NCBI GenBank assembly: GCA_963783385.1
Contig: CAWANJ010000007.1
Span: 64,001-128,000 of the forward strand
DNA from: an uncultured Gemmatimonadales bacterium
GTDB lineage: Bacteria; Gemmatimonadota; Gemmatimonadetes; Palauibacterales; Palauibacteraceae
Direction: 5' to 3'
Length of the DNA stretch: 64,000 bases
Position 1 is the first letter of the stretch; every line of letters begins with the position of its first letter. Below the pieces are notes generated by a model. It ran no database searches, had not been told where the DNA came from, and worked only from the letters and a program-made list of their open reading frames with translations. The translations under genes were made by a program, and so were the position numbers. Below, piece after piece: positions 7,986 through 24,327 of the stretch.

Positions 7986-9464
7986 TCATCCGACCCGGAC
8001 CCCGCGCCACACGAACCACAGCCCGATGGCGCCGAACAGGACGTCCGGCGACCACATGGCCACGTACGGCGAGATGATGAGCCGGTCCGCCAGCCCCTCT
8101 CCCGCCACCAGCGACACGTAGTAGGCGCAGAACACCAGCAGGCTCACCCCCACGACCATGGCCACGCCTCCCTCCTTGTAGCGTACCGCGATCGGACCGC
8201 CGATGAGCACGAACACGAGGCAGGCCGTCGGGATGGCGAACTTCTTCTGGATCTCGACCTGGTAGCGGCTGGCCCGCTGCTCTGCCCCCCGGAGCCGGAT
8301 CGCGTACGAGCCCGCCTCCGTCGCGGCCGAGACCAGGGCGTTGAGCCGCGCGGCGTTGTCGTGTCCCTTCCGACGCGCCGCGGCCAGGGTCGAGTCGCGC
8401 ACGAAAGCCGTGTCGGAGCCGCTCACCGCGGCCAGGGGGCCCGTGTCGGAGACGGAGGTCGCGGCCTTCCGGGCCGCGGCGGGCCGGGTGAGGATGGAGT
8501 CGCGCGGGACCGGGAGGCCCAGAACGCGCAGGGCGAGGCCTTCGGAGAACGCGCGGCTCTGCGCGATCACCTCCGCCTGCTCGAGGCGCGCGCTGCGGAC
8601 TTGCTGCTCCATGCGGCCGACCGGCATCTCGCGGTCGCCGCGGTAGCCGTTCTCCTGCTCCTTTTCGAGCTGGTTGGTCACCCCGGGCACGCGCATGACC
8701 AGCTCGCGGAAGTCCATGCGTTCGAACTCGCGGGGCTTGTTCTCGCTGTGCTGGTACATGATCCCGTTGTACAGCGTCAGGAACAGGTCCGTCTGCGCCT
8801 CATTGTAGGCCATGTCGCCGCTGTCGGCGTAGATGGTCCGGGCCCGGTCGCGCGTGCGGCGGTCGTAGATGGCCACGTCCTGGAGCGCGCTGCGCGCGCG
8901 GTCGATGCGGGCGGCCCGCAGGTAGAGCTCGTTCGACAGCACCTCGTTGATCGTGCGCTCGCGGAGCACGAAGGTGGGCTTCTTGCGCCCGATGCTGGAC
9001 AGGAGGAGCGCCAGCCTGTGGTTGGAGGAGGGGAGCAGCGTGTTGTTGAACACGACCAGCCCCCCGCCGACCAACATGCCGGCGAGGGCCAGCGGAGCCA
9101 GAAGGCGCGGCAGGTGGATCCCGCTCGCCTTGAGGGCGGTGATCTCGTTGTCGGCCGCCAGCTGGTTGAAGGTGTACAGGACGGCTATCAACACCGCCAT
9201 TGGCACGGTGACGGCGAGGATGAAAGGAAAGGAGAGAACGAAGACGCGCGCGATGATGGTCCAGTCCAACCCCTTGCCCAGCAGTTTGTTGAAACGCTGG
9301 CCAATCTCGTTGAGGAGGAGGAGCAGCGTGAGCGCGGACAGCGCGAACAGGAAGGGCGCGGCATGCAGCCGGAGCAGGTAGCGCGTGAGGATGCCGCCCG
9401 GACGAGCCGAGCGGGGCTCGCTCTCGGGCAGGCGGGCTCGTGCGCGTCGCGGGGACCCTGGCAT
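7986..9464 (-). CDS. lptF: LPS export ABC transporter permease LptF
   Basis: ILTRYLLR, PMAVLIAVL, DNEITALKASGI, KKFAIPTACLVF; tandem with lptG. Confidence 0.88.
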   Translation of the reverse strand: MPGSPRRARARLPESEPRSARPGGILTRYLLRLHAAPFLFALSALTLLLLLNEIGQRFNKLLGKGLDWTIIARVFVLSFPFILAVTVPMAVLIAVLYTFNQLAADNEITALKASGIHLPRLLAPLALAGMLVGGGLVVFNNTLLPSSNHRLALLLSSIGRKKPTFVLRERTINEVLSNELYLRAARIDRARSALQDVAIYDRRTRDRARTIYADSGDMAYNEAQTDLFLTLYNGIMYQHSENKPREFERMDFRELVMRVPGVTNQLEKEQENGYRGDREMPVGRMEQQVRSARLEQAEVIAQSRAFSEGLALRVLGLPVPRDSILTRPAAARKAATSVSDTGPLAAVSGSDTAFVRDSTLAAARRKGHDNAARLNALVSAATEAGSYAIRLRGAEQRASRYQVEIQKKFAIPTACLVFVLIGGPIAVRYKEGGVAMVVGVSLLVFCAYYVSLVAGEGLADRLIISPYVAMWSPDVLFGAIGLWFVWRGVRVG

Positions 9465-9602
9465 GCGTCGGACTCGTGACCCCTGGCTGGTGGATCCTGT
9501 GGCGTGGGGCTCGGCTTCGCGGCCTCCACGCTGGAAGCTACGCCCTCCCTGGGCCCATGGACACCGCCGCGCGGGCCGGCCGAAGGGCCGGCGCCGGGGA
9601 GC

Positions 9603-9713
9603 GGAGGGGTCCTCCCGGACGCGATGTCAAAGAATGTCCATCCTTGCTATTCCCTGACATATCCTGACAATCTTCGGCATGCGCTCTCCGAGACACCCCG
9701 GGCCCTCCTCCTC
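9603..9713 (+). repeat. Dispersed phased-heptad element, copy A
   Basis: GGAGG-ggt-CCTCC hairpin (9603-9615), then 10-bp units from 9624: ATGTCAAAGA ATGTCCATCC TTGCTATTCC CTGACATATC CTGACAATCT TCGGCATGCG, then tail CTCTCCGAGACACCCCGG. Aligns by eye with copies B and C. Confidence 0.8.
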
Positions 9714-10767
9714 GAACCCGCCGATCTTCGAGCGGCCGCCGCGGCGCGTGGCCGTGGTCCTGCTCTCGGCGATCGGAGACGTGGTGCACGGCATGCCGGT
9801 CGTCACATCGCTGGCGGAGGCGTGGCCGGAGGCCCGCATCGAGTGGATCATCCAGCCCGGTCCGCGGGCCCTGGTCCAGCCCCACCCCGACGTCGCCGAG
9901 TTCGTACCCTTCACCCGGCTCAAGGGCCCGGCCGCCCTCGCCGAGCTGGCCGACTTCCGCAGGCGCGTGGCCGGCCGCCGCTACGACCTGGTGCTGGCCC
10001 TGCAGGTGTACTTCAAGGCCGGGATGCTCACCGGGCTCCTGGACGCGTCCGTGAAGCTGGGCTTCGACCGGGAGCGCGCCGCCGACCTCAATGGCCTGTT
10101 CGTCACCCACCGCATCCCGGCACGGCCCGTGCGCCACGTCCAGGACCAGTACTTCGAGTTCCTCGAGTACCTGGGCGTGCCCGTGGTGCGCGAGTGGCGC
10201 TTCGCATTCAGCGAGGCGGAGCGGGAGGCGCAGCGCGCCTTCTTCGAGGCGCTCGACCGGCCGGCGCTCGCGGTCGTACTACGCACGACGCGTAGCGACA
10301 AGGACTGGATCCCCGAGCGCTATGCCAGGGTACTCGAGGCAGCCGAATCGGAGCTGGGTCTCCGTCCGGTCCTCGTGGGCAGCGGGGCGGCCGCCGAGCA
10401 GGCGGCCGCGGCCGAGGTCGAGCGCCTCACCTCGGCCCGGACCGTGAACGCCCTCCGGGACGACCTCCGGCGCCTGGCCTGGATCCTGGAGGGGAGCACG
10501 CTCGTGCTGAGCCCCGACACGGGGCCGCTGCACATCGCCTCGGCGCTGGGCACCCCGGTCGTGGGCCTGTATGGCGCCACCGACTCGCGGCGCGCCGGAC
10601 CCTACCGGGAACCGTTCCGGGAGCTGGTCGTGGACCGCTTTCCGCGCCGTCCCGACGAGCCGCCGGTGGCCGGGTTCCGGTCGGGCGGGATGAAGCGCAT
10701 CACGGTGGACGAGGTCGTCGAGAAGCTCCGGCTCGCCGCCGCGCGCCACCTTGGGGGTGGATCATGA
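9679..10767 (+). CDS. Glycosyltransferase family 9 (LPS heptosyltransferase-like)
   Basis: LSAIGDVVH, YDLVLALQ and SPDTGPLHIASALGTPVVGLYG are GT9 signatures. Confidence 0.92.
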   Translation: MRSPRHPGPSSSNPPIFERPPRRVAVVLLSAIGDVVHGMPVVTSLAEAWPEARIEWIIQPGPRALVQPHPDVAEFVPFTRLKGPAALAELADFRRRVAGRRYDLVLALQVYFKAGMLTGLLDASVKLGFDRERAADLNGLFVTHRIPARPVRHVQDQYFEFLEYLGVPVVREWRFAFSEAEREAQRAFFEALDRPALAVVLRTTRSDKDWIPERYARVLEAAESELGLRPVLVGSGAAAEQAAAAEVERLTSARTVNALRDDLRRLAWILEGSTLVLSPDTGPLHIASALGTPVVGLYGATDSRRAGPYREPFRELVVDRFPRRPDEPPVAGFRSGGMKRITVDEVVEKLRLAAARHLGGGS

Positions 10768-12341
10768 CGGGACGGGATGGGGGCGCCCGGCGCGGGCGCA
10801 TCCTGTGGGTCGACGACGAAGCCGACTTCCTCAAGCCGCACGTGATGCGGCTGGAGGAGGAAGGCTACCAGGTCGACACGGTCATGAACGGGGACGACGC
10901 CCTGCAGCTCCTGGGCGCCGAGCCCTACGACCTCGTCCTGCTCGACGAGCAGATGCCGGGCCTGCGCGGCATCGAGGTGCTGGGCCGCCTGCGCCGGCGC
11001 ATGGGCCGCCTGCCGGTGGTCATGGTGACCAAGAGCGAGGAGGACGTCACCCTGCGCGAGGCCATCGGCCGGCGCGTGGACGACTACATCGTCAAGCCCA
11101 CCAGCCCCCGCCAGGTCCTCTCCGTGGTGAAGCGGCTGCTGGAGGGGGAGAGCCTCCGGCACGAGCGCATCGCCCGGGACTTCACCCGCCGCTTCGGCGA
11201 GCTGCGCGAGACGCTGTCCGGGGCCGAGACGTGGGACGACTACGCCCATCTGTACGGCGAGATCGTCGACTGGGAGCTGCGGCTCGAGGAGTCGGGCGAG
11301 TCCGGTCTCCGCGAAAGCCTGGAGACCCTGGTCATCGACGTGCGCCGCGCCTACTGCGACTTCGTGGCCGCCCGCTACCCGGAGTGGGTGCACGAGGAAG
11401 GGGAGCGCGGCCCGGCCCTGTCGGTGGACGTGATCCCGCAGTTCTTCCTGCCCCTCCTGGCCGGCGGCGATCCCGCCCTGCTCATGGTCGTCGACTGCCT
11501 GCGGCTGGACCAGTGGCGGGCCATCGCGCCCATGGTTTCGGACATGTTCGAGATCGAGGAGACGCTGTACGCCTCGCTCCTCCCCTCGGCCACGCCCTAC
11601 GCGCGCAACGCCATCTTCGGGGGCATGTTTTCCGACGAGCTCGCCGAGCGCTACCCGCGCTGGTGGGAGCACGGCGACGAGGAGGGCTACAACACGTTCG
11701 AGGACGAGCTGTTCGAGGGCTTCATCGGCGAGCTGTCGGGCGGCACGGTGCGCACCCACTACGAGAAGGTGTTCTCGGCGGATGAGGGCGATGCGATGCT
11801 CCAGCGCCTGGCGGGCTACCTGGCCGACCCCTCGGCCACGGCGCTCGTGTTCGGGTTCGTGGACCTCCTGACCCACGGGCGCAGCGAGTCCCGCCTGGTG
11901 TGGGAGATGGCCCGCGACGCCGCGGCGCTGCGCTCGCTGACGCGCACCTGGTTCGAGCGCTCGGCCGCCTTCGCCGCGCTCCGGGAGGCCGCCCGGCGCG
12001 GGGTGCGCGTCCTGTTCACCACCGACCACGGCTCGATCCACTGCCGGCGCCCGGCCACCGTGTATGCCAAGCGGGACGCCACCGCCAACCTGCGCTACAA
12101 GTTCGGCGAGGACCTGAGGACCGAGAGCCCCTCGACGGTTCTCGGCGCCAACCGCGCCGATGACTTCCGCCTCCCGCCGGGCGGCACCCGCATGCGCTAC
12201 CTGCTGTGCCGCGAGGACTATTATTTCGTGTATCCGACCAAGCTGCGGGAATACCAGCAGCGTTACCGTGACAGCTTCCTCCACGGCGGCGTGAGCCCGG
12301 AGGAGATGATCCTGCCCGCGGTGCTCCTCACGCCGCGGTGA
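10764..12341 (+). CDS. PorX-like response regulator: receiver domain + PglZ (alkaline phosphatase superfamily) domain
   Basis: REC: WVDDE, LLDEQMPG, VTKSEE, KP. PglZ: VVDCLRLDQW, LPSATPYARNAIF, FVDLLTH, TTDHG, FLHGGVSPEEM. Confidence 0.9.
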   Translation: MTGRDGGARRGRILWVDDEADFLKPHVMRLEEEGYQVDTVMNGDDALQLLGAEPYDLVLLDEQMPGLRGIEVLGRLRRRMGRLPVVMVTKSEEDVTLREAIGRRVDDYIVKPTSPRQVLSVVKRLLEGESLRHERIARDFTRRFGELRETLSGAETWDDYAHLYGEIVDWELRLEESGESGLRESLETLVIDVRRAYCDFVAARYPEWVHEEGERGPALSVDVIPQFFLPLLAGGDPALLMVVDCLRLDQWRAIAPMVSDMFEIEETLYASLLPSATPYARNAIFGGMFSDELAERYPRWWEHGDEEGYNTFEDELFEGFIGELSGGTVRTHYEKVFSADEGDAMLQRLAGYLADPSATALVFGFVDLLTHGRSESRLVWEMARDAAALRSLTRTWFERSAAFAALREAARRGVRVLFTTDHGSIHCRRPATVYAKRDATANLRYKFGEDLRTESPSTVLGANRADDFRLPPGGTRMRYLLCREDYYFVYPTKLREYQQRYRDSFLHGGVSPEEMILPAVLLTPR

Positions 12342-14215
12342 GCGACAGCCGGAACGGGCCCGCGGCGGACGGTGGCTCGGGCGGCTACGGGCGACTCCTC
12401 CGCTACCTGACGCCCTACCGCGGGATCTTTTCGGCGAGTCTCCTGTGCATGGTGCTCGCCGCCCTGTTCGACGCCTTCAGCCTCGTCCTCCTCATCCCCT
12501 TCCTGCGCTCCCTGTTCGGGCAGGGCGCGCTCCTGCCCGGCGGCGGCCGGAACACGGCCGAGCGCGTCATCGACTGGGTGGTGGGCGGGTGGCTGCAGGG
12601 GGCGACCGGGCTCGAGGCGCTCCGGGGCATCTGCCTGGTCGTGCTGGCGGCGCTCCTCCTCAAGAACGTCTTCCTGTACGGGGCGCGCTTCCTGGGGATC
12701 GTCGTGCAGGAGCGGATCGAACGCGACATGCGCGACGACGTGTACGGACACCTGGCGCGGCTGCCGCTGCCCTTCTTCTCGGGCACCCGGGCCGGCCAGC
12801 TCATGGCCCGCGTCCTCACCGACACGCGCGAGACCAAGCAGATCGTGAGCTACGCGCTGGCGGACGCGCTCCGCCAGGTGGTGACCGCGATCGCTTACCT
12901 GCTCACCATGATCGCCCTGTCGTGGCGGCTCACCATGATCGCCGTCGTCCTGGCCCCCGTGCTGGCGGGCGCTCTCCGGCCGCTCCTCCGACGGCTGCGG
13001 CGGGGCTTCCGAAGGGCCTACGACGAGCAGGGCGATCTGCTCAGCATCCTCGAGGAGACGGTGAGCGGCGTGCGCCTGGTGAAGGCGTACGGGGCGGAGG
13101 CGTACGAGCGCGGGCGCTTCGAGGAGGGGTCGGCGCGCTTCACGCGGAGGCTGATCCGCACCGAGGCCGTCTCCCAGCTCGCCTCGCCCTTCTCGGAGGT
13201 GCTGAGCGCGCTGGTGGCGCTCGTCCTCCTGTGGATGGGCGCCAACATGGTCCTGGGCTCGGGCTCCATGGGGCCCGAGCAGTTCCTCACCTTCATCACG
13301 ATCGCGCTCCGCCTCATCTCCCCCGTCAAGGCGCTGGCCCAGCTCCCGGCCAGGGCCCAGTCCTCCATGGCCGCCGCCGACCGCTTCTTCGAGGTGCTCG
13401 ACACGCCGCCGGAGCCCGCCGTGCGGCCGGTTCCGGAGGAGGCGGGAGGAGACGGCGTCAGGCCGGTGGGGCTCGAGCGGGAGATCCGCTTCGAGGGCGT
13501 CGAGTTCGAGTACGAGCCGGATCGGCCGGTCCTCCGCGACATCAGCTTCGCGGTCCCCAGGGGAGAGGTCGTGGCCCTGGTGGGCCCCTCGGGGGCGGGG
13601 AAGAGCACCCTCGTCGACCTCCTGCCGCGCTTCATCGAGCCGGGCCGGGGCCGGATCACCCTGGACGGGGTGGACCTGCGGCGGATCAACCTGGGCGCGC
13701 TGCGGGACCTGATGGGGATCGTGAGCCAGGAGACGGTGATCTTCCACGACAGCGTGCGCGCCAACGTCGCCTACGGGAGGCCGGATCGCTGGGGCCAGGA
13801 GCGGCTGCGGGAGGCGGCGCGGGCCGCCAACGCGCTCGCGTTCATCGAGGCACTTCCGCACGGCTGGGACACGCTCCTCGGCGACCGGGGCGTGCGCCTC
13901 TCCGGCGGACAGCGCCAGCGGATCGGCATCGCTCGGGCCATCCTGCGCGACCCGCCCATCCTCATCCTGGACGAGGCCACCTCCAACCTGGACGCCGAGT
14001 CCGAGCGGCTCATCCAGGCGGCCATGGACCGCCTCCTGACCGGCCGCACCGTGTTCGTGATCGCCCACCGCCTGTCCACCGTCCGCGGCGCCGACCGCAT
14101 CCTGGTGCTGGAGGACGGCCGACTGGTCGAGAGCGGCACGCACGACGAGCTGTACGCGGCCGGCGGCCTGTACCGACGCCTGTACGAGATGCAGCTGGAG
14201 CCGGGTGGGAGCTGA
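12338..14215 (+). CDS. msbA: MsbA-like ABC exporter (fused TMD-NBD), probable lipid A-core flippase
   Basis: N-terminal TM domain, GPSGAGKST, LSGGQRQR, LILDEATS, IAHRLST; located among LPS genes. Confidence 0.75.
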   Translation: MSDSRNGPAADGGSGGYGRLLRYLTPYRGIFSASLLCMVLAALFDAFSLVLLIPFLRSLFGQGALLPGGGRNTAERVIDWVVGGWLQGATGLEALRGICLVVLAALLLKNVFLYGARFLGIVVQERIERDMRDDVYGHLARLPLPFFSGTRAGQLMARVLTDTRETKQIVSYALADALRQVVTAIAYLLTMIALSWRLTMIAVVLAPVLAGALRPLLRRLRRGFRRAYDEQGDLLSILEETVSGVRLVKAYGAEAYERGRFEEGSARFTRRLIRTEAVSQLASPFSEVLSALVALVLLWMGANMVLGSGSMGPEQFLTFITIALRLISPVKALAQLPARAQSSMAAADRFFEVLDTPPEPAVRPVPEEAGGDGVRPVGLEREIRFEGVEFEYEPDRPVLRDISFAVPRGEVVALVGPSGAGKSTLVDLLPRFIEPGRGRITLDGVDLRRINLGALRDLMGIVSQETVIFHDSVRANVAYGRPDRWGQERLREAARAANALAFIEALPHGWDTLLGDRGVRLSGGQRQRIGIARAILRDPPILILDEATSNLDAESERLIQAAMDRLLTGRTVFVIAHRLSTVRGADRILVLEDGRLVESGTHDELYAAGGLYRRLYEMQLEPGGS

Positions 14216-15557
14216 CGCGCCGTCTCCGTGGAGGCGGCGGGCCGTCCTGGCCCTGTACGTGCTCCTCGGGCTCGTCGCCCTCGTGGAGGTGGGGCGCGAC
14301 CTCGCATCGCCGGGCGACTACACCGGATTCGTGGCCTTCGGCGCGGCCGCGGCGGCCGGACAGGTCCCCTACGACCCCGCCGTGGAAGCCGCCTACCTGA
14401 ACGCCCGCTGGGCCACGTGGCCCCCCTCGTTCGCCCCCATCGCCGTTCTCCTGGCCCGCCTGGACGCGATCGCGCACGAGCCGGCCGTGTTCCTGTTCCA
14501 GCTCGCCAACCTCCTGGCCCTGGCCTGCGTCCTGTGGATCCTGGCGCGGTGGCTGTACGGGCGTCGGCTCACGCTGGGATCGCCGGATGGGCCGGGGTCG
14601 GACCCGTGGCCAGCGACGCGCTCCGGCGACGGGATCCCGCTCGCCGCCCTCCCGGTGCTCGGCGCCCTCCTGGTCCCGCTGCGCGTCGTCCTGGCCAACT
14701 TCGAGCACGCCCAGTCCAACCTCCTCATCCTCGGAGTGGCCGTGGCCGGGATGTGGCTCCTCCACCGGGGGCGGCGGGCCGGGGGCGGGGTCGCGCTCGG
14801 CCTGGCCACCGCCTTCAAGGCGACGCCGCTGCTGCTGCTCGGCTACCTGGCGTGGAAGGGAAGGTGGCGGGACCTGGCGGCCGCGCTGGCCGGCTGCGCA
14901 CTCACCTGGCTCCTCCTGCCGGCGCTCCTCCTCGGGCCGGGGCGCCTGGCGGCCTGGTACGGGGCGTGGATCCGGAAGAGCGCGGGATCCGCGGCGCAGA
15001 CGTCGCCGCTCAACCAGTCGCTTCTGGCCGCCCTCGAGCGCCTGGTCCCGGGAGTGCCCGGCTGGCCGCTGTTCCTGGCGGTGGCGGGGATGCTCGTGGC
15101 CGTGGGCCTGTGGGCGCTGCGGCGGCCGGGCGCGAGCGGCGAACGGGCAGGCGACGAGGCGGCGAGCGGCCGGCGCGAGGTACTGGAGGTGGCGCTGGTG
15201 CTGGCGGCCATGAGCCTGCTCTCGCCCCTGGCCTGGAAGGCGCACTTCGTGACCCTGGTGCCCCTGGCCGGCGCCCTGTTCGCCTACACGTCGGCGGGAG
15301 AGCGGTGGCGGGCGGACGGCATCGGAGGCACGGGCGCCGGAGGCGCGGGCGTCGCGGAAGGCGTCATGCCGGCGGCCGGGGGCGGAGCCCTGTACGTCGT
15401 GCTCGGGGCCGCCTTCCTCGTCCTGAACCTGAGCTCCGACGGCGTGATCGGTCGCTCCGCGGCCCGGGCGCTCGAGGCCGGGAGCGTGGTGACCTGGGCC
15501 GCGCTCCTCCTGGTCGGGGCCGGTCTGGTGGTGCTGGCGCGCGGGACTACGGCGTGA
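14205..15557 (+). CDS. GT87 (DUF2029) membrane glycosyltransferase, copy 1
   Basis: Polytopic membrane protein with ATWPPSF, AQSNLL, LATAFKATP, NQSL, LSPLAWKAHF. Confidence 0.8.
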   Translation: MGADAPSPWRRRAVLALYVLLGLVALVEVGRDLASPGDYTGFVAFGAAAAAGQVPYDPAVEAAYLNARWATWPPSFAPIAVLLARLDAIAHEPAVFLFQLANLLALACVLWILARWLYGRRLTLGSPDGPGSDPWPATRSGDGIPLAALPVLGALLVPLRVVLANFEHAQSNLLILGVAVAGMWLLHRGRRAGGGVALGLATAFKATPLLLLGYLAWKGRWRDLAAALAGCALTWLLLPALLLGPGRLAAWYGAWIRKSAGSAAQTSPLNQSLLAALERLVPGVPGWPLFLAVAGMLVAVGLWALRRPGASGERAGDEAASGRREVLEVALVLAAMSLLSPLAWKAHFVTLVPLAGALFAYTSAGERWRADGIGGTGAGGAGVAEGVMPAAGGGALYVVLGAAFLVLNLSSDGVIGRSAARALEAGSVVTWAALLLVGAGLVVLARGTTA

Positions 15558-16969
15558 GGGAGGGGGCCGGCGGAACCGGGCCGCGGGCCCCGATGGAGGG
15601 AGGCGGAGGCCGCGTCTCGCGTCCCGTGAAGCTCCTCGCCGGCGCGCTGGCGGCGGGCCTCGTGTGGGTCGCCCTGCGCGAGGTGCGGTCGCCGGGCGAC
15701 TACCTGGGCTTCGTGGCCTTCGGACGCGCGGCGCTGGACGGCGTCCTCCCGTACAGCCGCGCGCTCGAGGCGCTGTATCGACCCGATCTCCACGCCCCCT
15801 GGGCCACGTGGCCGCCGGCGTTCGCGCCCGCCGCGGCCGTCCTCGCGCTGGTGGACGGGGTCTCCCGGCCCCTGGGCGTGCTCCTCGTGCAGAGCGCCGC
15901 GCTCGGAGGGCTGGCCACGGCGCTGGCCTTCTTCGCCCGGCGCGCCGGCGTCGGGGCGGGCGAGGAAGCGGGCGCGCCGGGCGGCGCACGCTGGACGCCG
16001 GACGCACGCCGCGCGGCCGCCCTGTTCGTCACGGCTCCCGTCCTGCTGGCGCTGGCCGTTCCCTACAGGATCCTCCTCGACAGCCTGCAGAACACGCAGG
16101 TGAATCTCCTGGTCCTCGGCCTGGTGGCGGCGGCGTTCGGGCTGCTGGGGTCGGGGCGGCGGTGGGCGGGCGGACTGACGCTGGGGGCGGCTACCTCGTT
16201 CAAGGCGGCCCCGCTCCTCCTGCTGGGTTACCTGGCGTGGCGCGGACGGTGGAGGGACCTGGGCGCGGCGGCGGTCGGCGTGGTGGTGTGGTGGGTGGCG
16301 CTGCCCGCGCTCCTGCTCGGGATCGGCCGGGCCGGTCCCGCGATCGGCGGGGCCGGTCCCGCGGGCGGCATTCTCGGGTCCTACGCCGCGTGGCTCGGGC
16401 ACGCCGCCTCGGGAACGCTGCTCGTGCGCGGGAGCAACCAGTCGCTGCTCGCGGTGATCCTGCGGCTGGTCCCGGTCGGCCGCGGGACGGGGATCGCCCT
16501 GTTCGCCGTCGTCACGCTGGTCCTGGCGGTCCTCACGCTCGTGGCGTTCGGCCGGCCGCTCCGCCGCGTGGGGCCGCGGCGCGAGGTCGCCGAGCTGGCC
16601 GTGATGCTGGTGGCGGTCAGCCTCCTCTCACCCCTCGCCTGGAAGGCCCACTACGTGTCGCTGGCGCCTCTCGTCCTCGTGCTGGCGGCGGAAGCGGCGA
16701 TGGGAACGGGCACAGGATCCGGCGACGGCCGGAGGAGGAGCGTGGGAACGCTCGTCCTCTTCGCGCTTGCCTTCATGGCGCTCGACCTCAGCGGGCGGGA
16801 CCTGGTCGGCCGCGCCCTGTCGGCTGCCGCGGAGCAATGGGGGGCCGTCACCTGGACGGCGCTCTCACTCCTGGTGGCCGCTCTATGGTACCTGAGGACG
16901 ACTGAAGAGCCCGAGGCTCGTCCTGGGGAGGGGAGCCGGGGGCCTCCGGGAGCGGATGTCGAACATTGA
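15554..16969 (+). CDS. GT87 (DUF2029) membrane glycosyltransferase, copy 2
   Basis: GTGA start/stop overlap with copy 1; same motifs (SPGDY, ATWPPAF, TQVNLL, SFKAAP, NQSL, LSPLAWKAHY). Alternative ATG at 15593. Confidence 0.8.
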   Translation: MREGAGGTGPRAPMEGGGGRVSRPVKLLAGALAAGLVWVALREVRSPGDYLGFVAFGRAALDGVLPYSRALEALYRPDLHAPWATWPPAFAPAAAVLALVDGVSRPLGVLLVQSAALGGLATALAFFARRAGVGAGEEAGAPGGARWTPDARRAAALFVTAPVLLALAVPYRILLDSLQNTQVNLLVLGLVAAAFGLLGSGRRWAGGLTLGAATSFKAAPLLLLGYLAWRGRWRDLGAAAVGVVVWWVALPALLLGIGRAGPAIGGAGPAGGILGSYAAWLGHAASGTLLVRGSNQSLLAVILRLVPVGRGTGIALFAVVTLVLAVLTLVAFGRPLRRVGPRREVAELAVMLVAVSLLSPLAWKAHYVSLAPLVLVLAAEAAMGTGTGSGDGRRRSVGTLVLFALAFMALDLSGRDLVGRALSAAAEQWGAVTWTALSLLVAALWYLRTTEEPEARPGEGSRGPPGADVEH

Positions 16970-17043
16970 CAAAGATTGACAAGCTTTGTCAAAGATTGCC
17001 AAAGATGGCCATCGCGTTCCGAAGAGGCCCACCACCCCCTCTT
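16925..17043 (-). repeat. Dispersed phased-heptad element, copy B
   Basis: AAGAGG...CCTCTT hairpin (17022-17043); on the minus strand from 17012: ATGGCCATCT TTGGCAATCT TTGACAAAGC TTGTCAATCT TTGTCAATGT TCGACATCCG, then tail CTCCCGGAGGCCCCCGG. Confidence 0.85.
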
Positions 17044-17046
17044 TTC

Positions 17047-19180
17047 CTAGCCCTTGCACACCGGACGGCCGAACATCCCCCGGCCACCCTGATTCTCAGC
17101 CGTGGTTTCCGGCTGACGCGGCCACGTGTCGTCGGCCACGTCGCGATCCGGGAAGCGGCAGTGCGGGTCCAGCACGATGCGGTCGATCTTGCGCGGTCCG
17201 AAGTCCAGGTGCGCGTCGAAGGTCCGTGAGCCGTCGAACCACACGTCGACCGGATAGCGCACCACGGCGGTCGAGTCGTCCACCATGGTGGCGTGGGTCA
17301 TCTTCCGGATCGCCGGGCCCTGCGGTGCGAAGTGCACGGCCAGCACGACCGGCGAGGGCATGTCGCCGTCCTGGCGCACGGTCACGGTCGTGCTCGCGCC
17401 CGACTGCTGCACGCCCTGGATGGAGCCGTCCACGGCGTCGGTGGTGAACAGCCAGTAGTACCAGAACCAGCCCAGGTCGCGGTGCAGGGCGTGGCTCATG
17501 AAGAAGGCGTAGTCCCACGGCGAGGGGTGCTTGAAGCGCCACGCCGCGGCGTACTGGCTCATGGCGCGGGTGACCGCGCTGTCCCCCACGATCCCGCCCA
17601 GCATCGACAGCATCATGGGCGCCTTTCCGTACGCCTGGAAGCTGTACATGGGGCCGCCGTAGTTGGCGTCCCACATGAGCGGGGCCTCGCGCTCGTTGCC
17701 GCTCACCCGGCCGTACAGCTGGCCGCGGCCGTCCAGGCTCGGCCCGACCGGGAGCCCGCGCAGGTCGTCGGCCGACAGGACGTTCATGTACTGGTTGAAG
17801 CCCTCGTCCATGAAGCCGTACCAGGTCTCGTTGGTGCCCAGCGTCATGGGCCACCACTGGTGGCCGGTCTCGTGGTCCGACGCGCCGGTGCTCGACATGA
17901 TGAACATCGGGTACTCCATGCCGAGCTCGGGCCCGTCCACGTCCGTGAGGACGGGGAAGGCGTACGGGATCCACAGCTTCGAGTAGAACTCGAGCGCGTG
18001 GCGGATGCGCGCCGGGGCCGGGGCGTACGCCTTCGCGTGGCCGGGCAGGTACATGACGTTGACCGGGACCGGACCCCGGTCCGGGATGGTGGCGCGGGTG
18101 GCGTCCCACAGGAACTGGTTCGAAGTGGCCCAGCCCACGTCCCCGACCGTGTCGGCCACGAAATGCCAGGTCAGCCGGTCCCCGGCCGCCGTCGCCTTGC
18201 CGGGGCCGAGCTCATCGGGGCCCACCACGTGGATGGTCGAGTCCGAGTCGAGCACGTGCGAGAGCCGCTCGCGCTCGGTGGAGGTCAGGACCTGGTCGGG
18301 GTTCTGCAGCACCCCGGTCGCGCCCACCACCCAGCCGGCGGGCACCTCCACCTTCAGGTCGAAGTGCCCGAAGTCGTTGTAGAACTCGGACGGGCCCAGG
18401 TAGGGGTCGGTGTCCCAGCCGCCCTGGAACAGGTCGTCGTACATGGCTACCTGCGGGTACCACTGGCCCACCTGGTAGAGCGAGTCGCCCCAGGCGCCCA
18501 TGCGCTCCCCGCGCTCGCCGGCGGGCACCTTCGGCACCGTGAAGTGCCAGTCCGCCTCCAGGGTGAAGCTGTCGTGCGCGGCCACCGGCGTGGGCAGCGT
18601 GATCAACGCCACCGTGGCCGACGTGTCGTAGGCGGCCAGGATCACCTTGGGCGGGGTGGTGTCCCTCCGGAAGCGGCGGCGGGGCGGCGGGTTCAGGTTC
18701 ACCGGCTGGCCGTCGAACGAGAGGCTCGTCAGCGTGATGCCATCGGTCATCGACGGCATGGGGCGCTCGCGGACCGCGTCGGGCGCGAAGATGTTCTGGT
18801 AGAGCCGCAGGACGATGGTAGCGCATGGTGCTGTCGCTCCGGTTCTGCACCGTCACCCGCTCGTGTCCCGTGACCACGCCCGTCGACGGGTCGAGGCTGG
18901 CCTGGATGGCGTAGTCCGTCCACAGCTGCCAGTAGTTGGGTCCCGGCCGCCCGGTGGAGTCGCGGGTGCCCGCCGCGAACGCCCGGCGGATCATGTCCGT
19001 CATCGGGATGTCGTGACGGATCGGACGGGCCGGCCAGCTGTGCGCGGCCTGCGCGGGCGCCGGGCGGGCCCGGGCCTGCGCCGAGGCGGGTCGGCTCCCG
19101 CCGAGCAGGAGGAGCGCCGCGAGGCTCCCGGCGGCGACGACGGACAGGGCGGAACGCGGGACGGACGACGAGCGGCGCAT
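17047..19180 (-). CDS. M1 family zinc aminopeptidase, exported; frameshift near 18820
   Basis: Signal peptide and GRPGPNYWQ in 18212..19180; GMEYP, HETGH and downstream DEG (gluzincin) in 17047..18759. Junction ATG-CGC-T-ACC-ATC. Confidence 0.9.
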
Positions 19181-19434
19181 CGTGTCTCCTGGGCCGAGGT
19201 CGGTGTCGCGGCCCGGATCCCTCGAGCCGGGAGCCGGGCATCCGCGCCTCGCCCCTCCGGGCGGGGCGCCGAACAGAGATACAACGGACGCTGGCCCGTG
19301 GCGACCCCGGGTCCCCGCGCCGGCGGGCCGGGATGCCCTGTAGGCGGCGAGCCGGGTCGCGCTATATTCGGTTCCATGCCAGGCCGCGCCACGGATCGCC
19401 CACGACGTCTCTTCATTCCCGAGGAGTCCTTCGA

Positions 19435-21064
19435 GTGCCCCGACGACCGCTCGACCACCGCGCTCTCCGCTCGACCCTCCGCGCCGCGAGCCTCTCGCCT
19501 GCGGCGCTCATCCTGCCGGCCCTGATGGTCGCGGCCGGCCCCACGAGCTCTTCGCGCAGGGGGCCGGCACCTACACCTTCCGGATGCAGGTCGGCGGCCA
19601 GATGATGGGGACCGAGGTGGTCCACCGCAGCCCGGTTCGGGTCGAGGTCGACCTCGTGAGCCTCCTGGGCGCGGGCCGGATCCACTACGTCCTCACCGTC
19701 GCCCCGGGCGGCCGGGTCCCGGCTATGACGGCGGTCATCTACGGCGCCGCGGAGGACACGGCGCCGGCCGAGACCATCGATCTGCAGTTCGAGGACGACT
19801 CGGCCGTGGCGACCCTGTCGGGCCGGATGTCGAGGGTCGAGCGGCTGGCCACCCGGCCGGGCGCCATGCCCTACATCAACCCGTCGGCCGCCATGATCGA
19901 GCAGGCCCTCCGGCGGGCCAGGCATCCTGGGCGCGGCGCCGGGCAGGTAGACACCGTGCCCATGTTCGCCGTGCAGGGCGGGAGCACGCGCCCGCGCGGT
20001 GACCTGGGGCGGGCCGACTCGGCCGTGCTCGGCATGGGCGGGGTGGAGATGCGCGCCCACTTCTCCGCCGGGGGGGACGTGGAGTCCCTCGACATCCCGG
20101 TCCAGAACGTCCGCTTCGAGCGAGTCGAGGGCGCCCACCCGCTCCAGCCGGAGAAGATCGACTACGGGCCACCCGAGGGTGCGCCGTACGCGGCCGAGGA
20201 CGTGACGGTGCATACGCCGGCCGGCCTCGATCTCATGGGGACGCTCACCCTCCCGGACACGTCGGCCGGTCCCGTGTCGGCCGTGGTCACGATCACCGGC
20301 TCGGGCGCCGAGGACCGCGACGAGCGCATCCCCTTCGTCCACGGCTACCGGCCCTTCTGGCAGATCGCCGACACGCTGGGCCGGCGCGGCATCGCGACCC
20401 TGCGCCTGGACGACCGCGGCGTGAACGGCTCGAGCCCGGGCCCGACTCGGCCACCTCGGCCGACGACGCCGACGACATCCGGGCGGCGGTGGCGTGGCTG
20501 CGGGGCGGCCGGGGATCGACGGGAAGCGCATCGCGCTGGTGGGCCACAGCGAGGGCGGTCTCATCGCGCCGATGGTCGCGGCCACCGATCCGTCCCTGGC
20601 GGGCATCGTGCTCCTGGCCGGGCCGGCCTACACGGGGCGGCGCATCCTGGACTACCAGTACCGCAGCGGGATCGAGCGCGCGCCGGGCTTCTCGCCCGCC
20701 GAGCGCGACTCCGCCTGGCGAAGGTGCCGAGCCAGATCGCGGCGGGGGCGAAGCGGAGCGCCTGGCTCCGCTTCTTCTCTCCCACGACCCCGTGCCGACG
20801 GCCCGGACGGTCCGGGTTCCCGTCCTCATCCTGCAGGGGGAGACCGACCACCAGGTGACCCCGGAGCAGGCCGACACCCTGGCCGCGGCCTTCCGGGGGG
20901 GCGGCGACCCGGATGTCACGCTGGAGAAGTATCCGGACACCGATCACCTCTTCCTGGCGGACTCCTCCGGGATCCCGAGCGGCTACGCCGCGCTTCCCTC
21001 GCACGCCGTCCGTCCAGAGGTGCTGGGCACGATCGCGGACTGGCTGGCGGAGCACCTGAAGTGA
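19435..21064 (+). pseudogene. Exported alpha/beta hydrolase broken by about five frameshifts (pseudogene or sequencing error)
   Basis: GTG 19435 after GAGGAG; pieces in three frames: ITGSGAEDRD, LRLDDRG, GHSEGG nucleophile elbow, ILQGETDHQV, TDHLF. Confidence 0.8.
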
Positions 21065-23202
21065 GGGGCGCCCGGGCGGTCCTGGCGGTCGCGGCACTCC
21101 TCGCGCTCCTGGCCGGGGCCTGCCGTCCCGCCGCATCGCCCTCCTCTCCGTCGTCCCTCTCCGGCGACTGGGACTGGTACCGGACCATGGGCGCCACGCC
21201 CACGGGCGGCTGGGAGGGCCGACGCCGCTTCGCCTTCGCCCACTTCGAGGGCCCCGAGGCGGCCGGTGCGTGGCTGAAGCGCCGCTCGGGCGAGACCATG
21301 GAGACGATCGACTCGGTGGCGGTCACCGGGGACTCGGTGGTCCTCGACTTCGCCCCGGAGGCGGGTGGGGAGACGGCGACCTTCCGCGGCGCCTGGACGC
21401 CCGCCGGCGCGGCGAGCGGCGCCGAGACGGACACCCTCGCCGGCTTCCTGTACCGGGGCGGGACGCCGACCGAGCGCGTGTGGTTCGTGCGGCGCTCCTC
21501 GCCGGCCGACTTCGAGCCCCCCATCCGGCTGTGGCCGGGGCCCCTGTCGGACTCGACCTACGACGTGACGATCGACCCGGCCGTCCCCATGCACGCCCGC
21601 GACGGGACGCTCCTCATGAGCTTCGTAGGCCGGCCGGTGGGGAAGGGCCCGTTCGGCGTCGTCATGGAGCGGACCCCGTACCTGCGCTGGGACACGGCGG
21701 CGGCCACCTTCTGGGCGTCGCGCGGCTACATCTACGTGAAGCAGGACGTCCGGGGGCGGGGCGGCTCGGGCGGAGTCCTCGACATGAACGACATGCAGAT
21801 GGAGGACGGCTACGACGCGGTCGAGTGGGCCGCCCGGCTGCCGGGCTCCAACGGCAGGGTCGGCATGGTCGGCCGCTCCAACCCCGGCCTGTACGCGTGG
21901 TACGCCGCCATCGCCGCTCCCCCGCACCTGGCCGCCATCGCGCCCCAGGTGGCCACGGCCGATCCCGTCCGTCTCGTTCCCTACATCGACATGGTGTTCT
22001 CGCCCACGATCGTCCCGTGGCTGTGCCTGACGAAGGTGAAGGACAGGCTGTCGGACATGAGCGACGTGGCCGAGGTGAAGGCGTTCCGGCACCTGCCGGT
22101 CATCGACGCCGACACCCTGGCCGGCTGCCCGCGCCGCCAGTTCTGGCTGGACTGGTTCGACCACCAGAGCCAGGACGCCTACTGGAAGCGGCTCGGGGTC
22201 GAGAACCACCTGGACCGTGTGAAGGTGCCCGTGCTGGGCATCGCCGGCTGGCACGATGACGCGCGCGGCACGATCCGGAACTACACGGTGATGAGCCATC
22301 ATCCGCACCACCCCTTCCTCCGGGTCGTGATGGACGCCGGCGCGCACAAGGGGATCGACTACGTGCACGGTCACTTCGGCCCGCGCGCCCGCATCCAGCC
22401 GCGCCTCCTGCAGCTGCGCTGGTTCGACCACTACCTGAAGGGGATCGACAACGGCGTGGACCGGGAGCCACCGCTCGACTTCTTCCTCATGGGGCCCAAC
22501 GTGTGGACGAAGGAGGAGGCGTGGCCGCTGGCGCGAACGAGGTGGACGCCCTTCTACCTGCACTCGGGCGGGAACGCCAACACCTCGGCGGGGGATGGGA
22601 CCCTGGACACGGTCCCGCCGCGACCCGGTGCGGGAGCGGGCGCCGCGGCCGACACCTTCACCTACGATCCGGGCGATCCCACCCCGTACCTGGTCGACGC
22701 GCGCGAGCTGGAGCTGTCGCTCAACGAGGACTACGCGGCCGTCGAGCGCCGACGCCGCGACATGCTCGTGTTCACCACGGCGCCTCTGCGGGACTCGCTC
22801 CGCATCGAGGGCCCGATGACCGCCACCCTGTGGGCGGCCACGGACCGGAGGGACACGGACTGGCACGTCATGATCCTGGACGTCCACCCGGACGGGAAGG
22901 CCATGCGGATCCAGGACGGCATCGTGCGGGCCCGGTTCCGGAACGGCTTCGACCGGCCCGAGCTCCTCACGCCGGGAAGGGTCGAGAAGTACGAGATCAA
23001 TGTGTGGTTCACGGCGATGGTGCTGCCGCCGGGACACCGGCTGCGGGTGACGGTGGAGTCGGCCGCGTTCCCGAAGTATGACCGGAACCTCAACACCGGC
23101 GGCGACAACGAGCGGGATACGACCTACGTGTCCGCCCACCAGCGCGTCCTGCACGACGCCGCGCACCCCTCGCACGTGACGTTGCCGGTGATCCCCGGGT
23201 GA
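21061..23202 (+). CDS. CocE/NonD family hydrolase (S15-like), probable lipoprotein
   Basis: GTGA overlap with the upstream stop; lipobox-like LAGAC; ERTPY, QDVRGRGGSGG, DGYDAVEW, GRSNPG, C-terminal FPKYDRNLNTG. Confidence 0.9.
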   Translation: MRGARAVLAVAALLALLAGACRPAASPSSPSSLSGDWDWYRTMGATPTGGWEGRRRFAFAHFEGPEAAGAWLKRRSGETMETIDSVAVTGDSVVLDFAPEAGGETATFRGAWTPAGAASGAETDTLAGFLYRGGTPTERVWFVRRSSPADFEPPIRLWPGPLSDSTYDVTIDPAVPMHARDGTLLMSFVGRPVGKGPFGVVMERTPYLRWDTAAATFWASRGYIYVKQDVRGRGGSGGVLDMNDMQMEDGYDAVEWAARLPGSNGRVGMVGRSNPGLYAWYAAIAAPPHLAAIAPQVATADPVRLVPYIDMVFSPTIVPWLCLTKVKDRLSDMSDVAEVKAFRHLPVIDADTLAGCPRRQFWLDWFDHQSQDAYWKRLGVENHLDRVKVPVLGIAGWHDDARGTIRNYTVMSHHPHHPFLRVVMDAGAHKGIDYVHGHFGPRARIQPRLLQLRWFDHYLKGIDNGVDREPPLDFFLMGPNVWTKEEAWPLARTRWTPFYLHSGGNANTSAGDGTLDTVPPRPGAGAGAAADTFTYDPGDPTPYLVDARELELSLNEDYAAVERRRRDMLVFTTAPLRDSLRIEGPMTATLWAATDRRDTDWHVMILDVHPDGKAMRIQDGIVRARFRNGFDRPELLTPGRVEKYEINVWFTAMVLPPGHRLRVTVESAAFPKYDRNLNTGGDNERDTTYVSAHQRVLHDAAHPSHVTLPVIPG

Positions 23203-23214
23203 GAGGGGCGGTAG

Positions 23215-23333
23215 AGAGGGGAGGCACCCTCTTTCGGGCACCAATGGCCAGGATTGTCAGAGAATGTCCAACTTTGTCATTCCTTGACAAGGATGGACAT
23301 CAGCTCCCGGAGGACCCCCGCGCTTCCCCCTCC
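23215..23333 (+). repeat. Dispersed phased-heptad element, copy C
   Basis: AGAGGG-gaggca-CCCTCT hairpin (23215-23232); units from 23244: ATGGCCAGGA TTGTCAGAGA ATGTCCAACT TTGTCATTCC TTGACAAGGA TGGACATCAG, then tail CTCCCGGAGGACCCCCG. Confidence 0.85.
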
Positions 23334-24205
23334 TTCTCCCCCTCGCTCTCTCCCTCCCGGGCCTCCACATAGGCCGCCTCCAGCGCCCAGAACGCCGCCA
23401 GCGCGGCCTCCAGCCTTCGCTTGCGGAGATGGCGCGCGAGCCGGCGCAGGCTCCAGTGGCCCACGGCCGTCGGCACGGGAAAGGGGAACAGGCGCCCGCG
23501 GTCCAGGTCCACGAGGAGGGGGAAGGGAGCCGGCGGGGCCGCGGAGGGCTCGGCGGTCGGGTCCCGGACGAGGAAGTTGTCGACGTGCAGGTCGGGGTGC
23601 CATCCCCCGGCCGCGTGCAGGCCGGCCGCCGTGCGGCCGAGGGCGCGCATGAGGGAGGTCGCCGCGTCCGCCGCCACCCCCTCCGGCGTGGGGGCGGTCG
23701 CGTCCAGGCTCGCCAGCACCTCGCCGGCCGGCCGCGCGCCGTCCACGAAGCGGGTGATGAGCGCGGCCCGGTAGCCGGGCCCGAGCTCCTCCCGGACGCA
23801 GGCCAGCGGCTCGACCACCGGGACGCCCCGCCGGCGGAGCCGCTCGGTCACGACCAGCTCCCGCTCGCCCCGCCGGCCCAGCAGGTAGCGCCGCCGGCTG
23901 AAGCGCCGGGCCAGCCCGCCGCGCCGGTACGGCCGGACGACGGCCTCTCCCGGTGGCTCGGTGGGCACCACGGCCACGGGGCCCCGGCCCGAGTCGGTGT
24001 CCAGGAGCCGGGCGCCCCGCCCCTCGAGCCGCGTCACCAGCTCCCGGGGCTCGAGATCCGCGGCCTCCAGCAGCCCGGCCGCGTCGAAGGTGCCGGCGAA
24101 GTCGGTCCGCACGAGGGCGGAGCGGCGTCCCTCGCGGCGGACCACGAACCGGTCCGCGAGGTCGGCGGGGAGGGCGGAGGCGGGAGGGGCGTCGGCGCGT
24201 GCCAT
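23300..24205 (-). CDS. Lipopolysaccharide kinase, Kdo/WaaP family
   Basis: VVRPYRRGG, RE..V, catalytic HPDLHVDNFLV, LVDLDRG, RRLARHL. Confidence 0.85.
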   Translation of the reverse strand: MARADAPPASALPADLADRFVVRREGRRSALVRTDFAGTFDAAGLLEAADLEPRELVTRLEGRGARLLDTDSGRGPVAVVPTEPPGEAVVRPYRRGGLARRFSRRRYLLGRRGERELVVTERLRRRGVPVVEPLACVREELGPGYRAALITRFVDGARPAGEVLASLDATAPTPEGVAADAATSLMRALGRTAAGLHAAGGWHPDLHVDNFLVRDPTAEPSAAPPAPFPLLVDLDRGRLFPFPVPTAVGHWSLRRLARHLRKRRLEAALAAFWALEAAYVEAREGESEGEKEGEARGSSGS

Positions 24206-24327
24206 GCCCCGAAGATGCCGCGCCCGCCGTCCATCCGCGATGCGGGGAGGCGCGCGCCGCGCCGTCTCGTCTCGCGCGGCGTCCCCGATTTGTACGGCCC
24301 GGGCCGGCGCGGTAGCTTTCCCGGCCC

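Follow-up and report, generated by a model that had tools for sequence, protein, structure and literature searches.

Omega of plasmid pSM19035 and ParR, which acts on parC of plasmid R1, are ribbon-helix-helix (RHH) proteins whose dimers polymerise on arrays of 7-10 short direct or inverted repeats, and such arrays serve as operators and as centromeres; parC consists of two facing repeat sets. Small palindromic intergenic repeats, including miniature inverted-repeat transposable elements (MITEs), ERIC, Correia elements and REP/BIME, form a second class, and some of these families carry protein-binding sites. Two antitoxins of the ParD type come closest to the element described here. In its structural description, three dimers of Vibrio cholerae ParD2, from the parDE2 locus, bind three imperfect palindromes spaced 10 bp apart along a single face of the DNA, which is bent by 120 degrees, with the β-sheets inserted into successive major grooves in a model built on CopG bound to TGCA-N5-TGCA (PMC10776004). 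A Pseudoalteromonas plasmid encodes PrpA, a PF03693 antitoxin whose footprint of about 30 bp spans its own -35 and -10 elements; a further repeat array, at the origin of the plasmid, is bound as well, with a common TTTG(T/A)AAT motif and a physiological effect (PMC7848731). Here we analyse a 64,000-nucleotide stretch (the window, C7:64001-128000) of the 3.54-Mb assembly of an uncultured Gemmatimonadales bacterium (71% G+C, 9 contigs; genome G000). Three copies (A, B and C) of an element made of phased TGNCA heptads lie in the window, and four more (D to G) lie elsewhere in the genome. Read as sequence, these arrays are a doubled, dyad version of the operator used by a clade of ParD-like genes, and a ParD-type RHH protein encoded beside copy E probably binds them.

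The three islands lie exactly where an earlier note on this DNA had placed them, and most of what it reported about their make-up was borne out: the third base of the heptad is G in 18 of 18 units and the fifth is C in 17 of 18 (TTGCTAT in A being the exception), the tails of B and C are alike, and nhmmer and covariance-model searches detected no further copy in the window. All three copies it counted are real, but the family has seven members. Scanning the whole genome with a score that sums the matches to six TGNCA cores in phase (maximum 24), we obtained values of 19-24 at seven loci only, with the background thinning near 17, and a chance origin of the arrays is therefore excluded. The profile scan that the note had proposed (nhmmer --max, E<=10, on a profile of the copies) returned the identical seven loci and nothing further genome-wide. 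Mean column identity among the seven copies is 58-66%, and five of them are clustered on 48 kb of contig C7, in a cell-envelope polysaccharide locus. The parts of the three window copies and the positions of the other four are as follows.

9597..9623, plus strand: left arm of array A, G-rich, with the inward consensus GGGGTCCTCC-CGG-linker (from the nhmmer/covariance-model envelope 9597-9699 and the arm alignment)
9624..9680, plus strand: core of array A, six heptads at 10-bp phase
9681..9699, plus strand: right arm of array A, the 'tail' of the earlier note
17013..17039, minus strand: left arm of array B, in the orientation of the element
16956..17012, minus strand: core of array B, six heptads, 57 bp
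16937..16955, minus strand: right arm or tail of array B, CCGCTCCCGGAGG...
23217..23243, plus strand: left arm of array C
23244..23300, plus strand: core of array C, six heptads, 57 bp
23301..23319, plus strand: right arm or tail of array C, CAGCTCCCGGAGGACCCCC
C7:39.2k: array G, 58-bp core
C7:60.65k: array F, outside the window
C1:33.3k: array D, outside the window
C3:370.7k: array E, seven units

In A, B and C the core runs from ATG to CAT and comprises six 10-bp units in 57 bp. This length is kept exactly in five of the seven copies; array E has gained a seventh unit through exact duplication of one 10-bp unit, and the core of G measures 58 bp. Each core is dyad-symmetric and bordered by G-rich and C-rich inverted arms. 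Left arms align with reverse-complemented right arms, and the model built from the element also matches the opposite strand of every copy, at 33-57 bits against 72-82 bits forward. The inward consensus of the 14 arms reads as a G-rich stretch, GGGGTCCTC-YY-CGG, a short linker and ATGTCAA-N3-TTGTCAA-N3-WTGNCAA. Read inward, the centre base of the heptad is T in 24 of the 42 units and A in 6 of the 42; since this base follows the dyad, the array is built as three units facing three. The earlier description of a hairpin, a six-unit core and a conserved tail thus stands for the six 10-bp units, but the supposed hairpin and tail belong together, as opposite arms of a single inverted repeat.

Across copies the TG.C positions are invariant and the spacers are free. 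Similarity between the two core arms within a copy (0.64) does not exceed that between core arms of different copies (0.65), indicating that what is conserved is a sequence pattern, not intramolecular pairing. The copies have common arms and a mosaic pattern of similarity: the right arm of C is identical to that of E at 26 of 27 positions, and it is near-identical to the ribosome-binding-site stretch that precedes the RHH gene at copy E of a sister genome (G003, same genus).

Regions upstream of other genes provided an independent check of the link to ParD proteins. The test set came from the best 80 of 516 relatives and comprised 78 loci in which the ParD-like gene is of the ordinary kind, with 40-69% identity across the RHH domain. 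The 120-nt stretches upstream of these genes gave 73 distinct segments, which we set against 1,928 control segments taken from these loci. Three or more T[GA]N[CT]A units in 10-bp phase were present in 26 of the 73 upstream segments, as opposed to none of the 1,928 controls and none of 1,460 shuffles. With a weight matrix derived from the 42 units of G000 alone and applied at three phased positions, 41 of 73 exceeded the 99th percentile of the controls. A typical site reads ATAACAG-N3-TTGACAA-N3-TTGCTAT and is followed by a TAGNGT-like -10 element, so that the middle unit is the -35 box. These ordinary ParD-like operators consist of runs of two to four units, and the classical parDE loci of a sister genus, where ParE is encoded downstream, carry GTGGCAA-N3-TTGCTAC upstream. 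Such enrichment of both heptad and phase upstream of ParD-like genes marks them as the operator grammar of that ParD clade.

This result also bears on the two central proposals of the earlier note. Cooperative protein binding along one helical face gains support, by inference, from the occurrence of the same heptad at the same 10-bp phase before ParD-type RHH genes, and from the solved or modelled complexes of ParD2 and CopG, whose dimers occupy consecutive major grooves along a single face. The note had further called the element unrecognised and its protein unknown, adding that a match to a described operator would speak against this. Rfam gave no match at E<=1 for window positions 8000-25000; the motif does, however, match a described operator class, and a specific candidate protein can be named, so the designation holds only in part.

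The candidate is encoded directly behind array E by a gene at C3:370800-371387, whose product has 196 residues. It gives the sole match to PF03693 (ParD_antitoxin) in the genome (E 1.4e-7) and also matches RHH_1 (1e-4). Its profile finds solved ParD chains, 8c24 at 5e-8 and also 3kxe and 7b22, and the solved omega and the pCXC100 RHH centromere protein are among the weak fold matches. The right arm of E provides GGAGG, followed after 5 nt by a CTG codon. Coding conservation with G003 begins exactly at this CTG, which aligns with the ATG of ParD homologues (MNVSL...). Further into the gene, every indel between G003 and G000 keeps the reading frame, its length being a multiple of three, which shows the 196-residue protein to be genuine. 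Two database proteins have been called from the ATG of the first unit of the array, which means that a third genome carries the E array together with the gene. No ParE gene lies directly downstream, where the next gene is a convergent GIY-YIG gene; the search for ParE was confined to this locus.

In place of ending after the RHH part, the open reading frame (ORF) runs on into a fused C-terminal domain of 115 residues. An AlphaFold model based on an alignment of four sequences (mean predicted local distance difference test, pLDDT, 67.5) comprises an RHH domain resembling that of ParD (residues 1-40), a Pro/Ser linker without order (39-79) and a folded α/β domain (82-196). The best structural matches of the latter by VIA-align were minimal nucleotidyltransferases, 1wot (Z 7.2, root-mean-square deviation 3.9, 83 aligned), 1ylq (6.7) and 8xeh (5.9), Z values of a size common for unmatched models. 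Foldseek against the PDB gave nothing at E<=0.07 and Pfam nothing at E<=10, and the protein atlas proposed NTP_transf_2 at 0.86, which serves as a lead only. G156, E176, E178 and D189 are invariant in the four sequences and, in our reading of the model, sit at the G[GS]...[DE]x[DE]...[DE] motifs of nucleotidyltransferases. The domain thus weakly resembles minimal nucleotidyltransferases, a tentative assignment. An alternative motif at RGERRPSSDV was dropped after the structure model had been obtained, and the prediction of a complex of two copies of the domain was uninformative (score 0.00).

Full-length relatives of this protein are rare, amounting to three clusters among 5.8 billion and to two metagenome contigs among the best 80 of 516 confirmed relatives. 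One distant homologue (P0003) is 40% identical. Scanning genome contigs with the protein returned only the G003-type record and short archaeal RHH matches. Within the family, the full-length protein occurs in 2 of 114 genomes, G000 and G003, and the element, searched with a covariance model without structure, occurs in the same two. G003 carries three copies, orthologues of A, D and E. In another member of the genus (G001, about 80% identity), an outer-membrane-protein-like gene fills the place of the RHH gene after the tRNA cluster, intergenic DNA that is GC-rich and unrelated occupies the sites orthologous to A, B and C, and a plain GC-rich inverted repeat stands at the position of C between the same convergent genes. 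In G003, array B is missing through a larger deletion that also removed a gene end, the neighbourhood of C is rearranged, and the site of G falls between contig ends.

Pattern searches beyond these genomes confirmed the narrow distribution. Five units with one mismatch allowed were found in 2 of 41 relatives, and the reversed control gave no matches. An exact four-unit pattern was present in 4 of 401 genomes of the phylum, G000 included, the other three of the remaining 400 having single sites: a simple tandem repeat, a pair with a 20-bp period, and a series of directly repeated CTGACA words. This last site (G247, another family of the phylum; L045 1491-1560) has six to seven repeats with a 10-11-bp period in a single orientation, unlike the facing orientation of the arrays, and starts directly after the stop codon of an OmpR-type response-regulator gene.

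The orthologous cores of G000 and G003 differ at 1 position in A, 11 in D and 6 in E, which has six units instead of seven in G003; the arms of A are nearly unchanged. Of these core substitutions, 3 of 18 fall on T2, G3, C5 or A6 of the heptad, where 7.6 would be expected (binomial P=0.022). The organism is present in salt-marsh and sediment populations. In four other metagenome runs, the contigs that span A, B and C show almost no change, and those of all four have G instead of A at base 23243. Two contigs depart from the window sequence: one from a soil metagenome (run X10) matches C as far as 23307, beyond which its sequence is unrelated, and one from a salt marsh (run X2) skips 9448-9720, the whole intergenic region of A. 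These departures may be strain variants or chimeras.

Copy F offers a view of the unit that is gained or lost. Compared with G000, the G003 sequence has a clean single gap of 69 bp with conserved flanks, and in G000 a 4-bp direct repeat, TCCG, lies on both sides. The 69 bp consist of the core plus 4 flanking bp at either end and a single copy of the two TCCG repeats, and the empty site in G003 is the centre of a CTTCCGGAAG palindrome. From the sequence comparison, the event may have been an insertion or a deletion. The same short intergenic region contains two other differences, making three separate indels: a 93-bp C/T-rich stretch with (CCT)n to the right of F (C7:60735-60830) is not in G003, and about 60 bp of extra GC-rich DNA lies to the left of the site in G003. 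A search for transposases of the Y1 (RAYT/IS200) type gave one weak match, far from the arrays and unlinked to them. The common arms, the near-identical halves and the lack of graded smaller sites together favour copying of the whole module.

All seven arrays are intergenic, at transcription-unit boundaries of several kinds. Array A is located between the divergent genes for an LptF/G-like protein (7986-9464, minus strand) and a GT9 glycosyltransferase, whose first in-frame ATG (9679-9681) overlaps the last unit of the array; G likewise lies between divergent genes. The others, B, C, D, E and F, are a short way downstream of genes or tRNAs. The left arm of B begins 8 bases past the stop codon of an M1-peptidase-like gene (17047-18759, minus strand), and the left arm of C just past the stop of an S15 peptidase gene (20494-23202, plus strand). 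The convergent Kdo/WaaP-kinase-like ORF on the other side of C (23300-24205, minus strand) overlaps the last base of the core with its stop codon (23300-23302), and its C-terminal 20-odd residues would be encoded by the right arm of C. B and C thus lie between convergent gene ends, as had been noticed before. D separates two tandem units, and E, which precedes the RHH gene, follows a cluster of seven tRNA genes at a distance of about 120 bp. Array E alone (one of the seven) abuts the ribosome-binding-site and start region of the RHH gene; the other six are without an RHH gene.

The region at about 29-95 kb of C7 is a large lipopolysaccharide (LPS)/exopolysaccharide (EPS) locus. Between G and F (39.2-60.6 kb) all Pfam-supported genes are on the plus strand, in the order gmd, flippase, glycosyltransferases, epimerase, sulfotransferase, aminotransferase and a Wzz-like gene. 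The same holds from A to B, for GT9, receiver-PglZ, an MsbA-like ATP-binding cassette (ABC) transporter and GT87. Given this uniform orientation, there are two unidirectional polysaccharide clusters, 21 kb and 7.3 kb in length, each framed by two of the four arrays, with G and A at the heads and F and B at the tails. D and E are outside envelope loci as far as these are annotated.

Several features near the arrays were recorded in passing. In the A-B cluster, window positions 10764-12341 encode a response-regulator receiver fused to a PglZ domain, without a DNA-binding domain by Pfam. A 112-residue ORF at 6853-7191 (minus strand) matches only positions 247-353 of the 353 in the LptF/LptG profile and may have a mis-called start or be a broken gene. 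The left flank of C, and of this copy only, contains the octamer GGCGGTAG (23207-23214), which equals the ops/JUMPstart core and is probably there by chance. To the left of D (C1:33215-33300), the AT-rich promoter region of a SatD-family gene has several inverted GTACAAG/CTTGTAC words, which are kept in the G003 orthologue and resemble an operator of their own. The stretch that separates E from the last tRNA-Pro gene (C3:370660-370690) has three tandem octamers of the GGGAAAGA type that are not in G003.

We propose that a ParD-type RHH protein docks on each element. Every TGNCA heptad would be occupied by one dimer, with its β-ribbon in the major groove, and the six heptads, one helical turn apart, would seat six dimers cooperatively along a single face of the helix, three facing three. 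Copy E would be the autoregulatory site of the RHH gene, and the other six copies, A, B and C among them, would be duplicates of the whole cassette, the unit of gain or loss being the 57-bp core with a few bases around it. The satellite copies are placed where transcription units meet, frequently at the tip of an inverted repeat rich in GC. Protein bound at these sites might repress the divergent promoters at A and G, and it might block or insulate read-through between converging or tandem units at B, C, D and F. Binding of the arrays by the RHH protein encoded beside E is, on the present analysis, the probable outcome; the particular effects on neighbouring genes we rate much less highly.

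A number of observations weigh against this proposal. Only one of the seven arrays adjoins an RHH gene, and protein and arrays occur together in a single lineage, so that their association counts in effect as one evolutionary event. If selection had built up a regulon, a graded series of sites should be present, yet smaller sites of two to three units elsewhere in the genome amount to three marginal matches, against one in the reversed-genome control, which is noise; the common arms, too, suggest module copying rather than independent recruitment. The RHH gene appears to use CTG as its start codon, and scans of copy E for a sigma-70 promoter and an intrinsic terminator returned zero and zero. 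Finally, the substitution pattern of the cores provides modest evidence that they are under constraint, the test being a weak one with 18 changes.

Part of this evidence would be accommodated by a small selfish or neutral palindromic repeat of the MITE/ERIC kind, spreading alone or helped in trans, in which the likeness to ParD operators reflects origin only and the satellites have no host function. The 69-bp presence/absence of F with its TCCG repeat and the CTTCCGGAAG palindrome centre in G003, and the unrelated GC-rich DNA at the A, B and C sites of G001, are what such an element would leave behind. All copies are full-size modules with common arms and mosaic similarity, their placement relative to gene orientation is mixed, the whole element is an imperfect inverted repeat (terminal inverted repeats), and as single strands the copies form long hairpins (z -2.4 to -3.4 in five of seven). 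The earlier note's idea of a recombination site is partly apt in the light of the F indel and its 4-bp flanking repeat, as is its REP/MITE alternative, except that dispersal is clustered and not uniform. Against a purely selfish repeat stand the small number of copies (seven, 58-66% alike), the invariant TG.C amid free spacers, the avoidance of cores by orthologue substitutions and the absence of a linked transposase in the search for the Y1 type, whose one match is distant; a target duplication is seen at one site only, for an event that may be an insertion or a deletion. We regard this account as unlikely, and it explains spread, not conservation, so that it is compatible with binding by the RHH protein. 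A regulator of another kind is improbable. An OmpR/PhoB-type protein could act on TGTCA-like direct repeats in an envelope-polysaccharide regulon, the RHH gene beside E being coincidental: TGTCA/TGACA heptads resemble Pho-box half-sites, five of the seven arrays are in one LPS/EPS locus that encodes the receiver-PglZ protein, and another family of the phylum has the CTGACA direct repeats after an OmpR-type regulator gene. Pho boxes and other OmpR-PhoB sites are, however, 7-bp direct repeats with an 11-bp period in a single orientation. The arrays, with a 10-bp period and an orientation that inverts at the centre, three facing three, were for this reason not assigned to them. Moreover, the receiver-PglZ protein is without a DNA-binding domain by Pfam, heptad and phase are strongly enriched before ParD-like genes, the arm of E merges into the start of the RHH gene, and D and E are outside annotated envelope loci. 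Likenesses to sigma-54, CRP/FNR, LexA, DnaA, parS and CtsR sites were dropped because spacing or words appear not to fit.

The element could instead act as RNA or single-stranded DNA, as an imperfect hairpin of about 110 nt that stabilises or terminates incoming transcripts, as proposed for other intergenic palindromic repeats; the earlier note had similarly considered a small-RNA or antisense-promoter module. Five arrays (B, C, D, E and F) are downstream of genes or tRNAs, and single-sequence minimum free energy (MFE) folds give a long hairpin that pairs the left arm with the right, although the folds of two copies do not surpass those of shuffled sequences (z -0.5 and -1.3). In an alignment of eight sequences, the structure we named pairs 85.8% of cells against 82.8% in shuffles (reached by 11 of 500), and the covariation score is 0.252 against 0.189 (7 of 500), a slight excess that comes from the outer arms only, the core helices never co-varying. 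The Rfam search of window positions 8000-25000 at E<=1 was empty, the RNAalifold consensus is weak (-7.5 kcal/mol, with a positive covariation term), the core arms are as similar between copies as within one, and A and G lie between divergent genes. Together with the missing sigma-70 site at E, these checks, of which the earlier note had suggested the Rfam and covariation searches, did not sustain the small-RNA or antisense-promoter idea. With single folds mixed as well, RNA was rejected as the leading interpretation and kept as a rival, about as improbable as an OmpR/PhoB-type regulator. Least probable of all, in our estimate, is a centromere-like or loop-anchoring role, in which RHH-bound arrays would be paired or passed to a partition motor, as with plasmid RHH centromere proteins. 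RHH-site arrays at several places on a replicon are the format of omega/parS and ParR/parC, five arrays are strongly clustered within 48 kb, the 21-kb and 7.3-kb gene clusters are each enclosed by a pair of arrays, and the second folded domain of the protein could bridge between them. Yet no ParA/ParM-type gene lies beside the RHH gene, whose neighbours are seven tRNA genes and the convergent GIY-YIG gene (the search covering this neighbourhood), and nothing places the region, in an assembly of unordered contigs, near an origin.

Returning to the ParD-type protein and its arrays, a bolder version can be formulated, which we offer as rather unlikely. A mobile 57-bp operator cassette that inserts at the apices of GC-rich, terminator-like palindromes would form, with the RHH-nucleotidyltransferase-like protein, a master-and-satellite system. 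Loaded arrays would be switchable two-way roadblocks or loop anchors fencing polysaccharide operons, autoregulation would operate via read-through from the tRNA operon, and the protein, or its enzymatic domain, may help to copy the cassette. What is most likely new here is a ParD-type RHH operator that has been doubled and dispersed to gene-cluster boundaries. If this is true, a toxin-antitoxin repressor has lost its toxin and gained a domain, its operator has been doubled, and the operator has been copied as a discrete cassette of 57-69 bp to six places, mostly at the borders of envelope polysaccharide operons. A regulon or insulator set would then have arisen by moving ready-made arrays, not by point mutation, and a poorly studied phylum would have yielded a compact DNA-protein pair, six dimers on 57 bp. 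For comparable phased arrays in other phyla, the binding partner might then be sought beside whichever copy adjoins a small RHH gene.

The comparison with known systems brings out both sides of this arrangement. With MITE, ERIC, Correia and REP elements, the arrays have in common an imperfect palindrome of about 110 bp, a strictly intergenic position, often past gene ends, presence or absence between relatives and a short flanking direct repeat, the last at one copy. They differ in that there are seven diverged copies whose centre is conserved and not the termini, with no linked Y1 transposase, and in that this centre is a recognisable operator array with a candidate cognate gene beside one copy. 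Omega and ParR/parC use contiguous 7-bp or 11-bp units, are plasmid-borne and come with a partner ATPase gene, none of which is seen here; next to the RHH gene there is no partition nucleoside triphosphatase (NTPase) gene of the kind that accompanies an RHH-type centromere, a statement limited to the locus. Of a type II parDE module, the ParD-family gene is present, and at this locus, the only place examined for ParE, a fused domain takes the position of the downstream toxin gene.

As with ParD2, the presumed regulator is a ParD-family RHH protein, the sites are short, imperfectly palindromic and spaced by one turn of the helix (4 bp + 6 bp in ParD2), and one site, here copy E, overlaps the regulator's own expression signals (PMC10776004). 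ParD2 has three sites with GGTA/GTAY cores at one locus per operon, a ParE partner and a disordered C-terminus, whereas the arrays have six TGNCA cores in a three-facing-three dyad, occur at seven loci, six of them without an RHH gene, and are accompanied by a protein with no ParE neighbour and a predicted folded C-terminal domain (PMC10776004). The likeness to PrpA is that of a ParD-family antitoxin with a site at its own promoter plus a second array elsewhere on the replicon (PMC7848731). The secondary sites of PrpA are replication iterons at which it competes with the initiator, whereas those described here are six chromosomal intergenic cassettes built like the primary site (PMC7848731).

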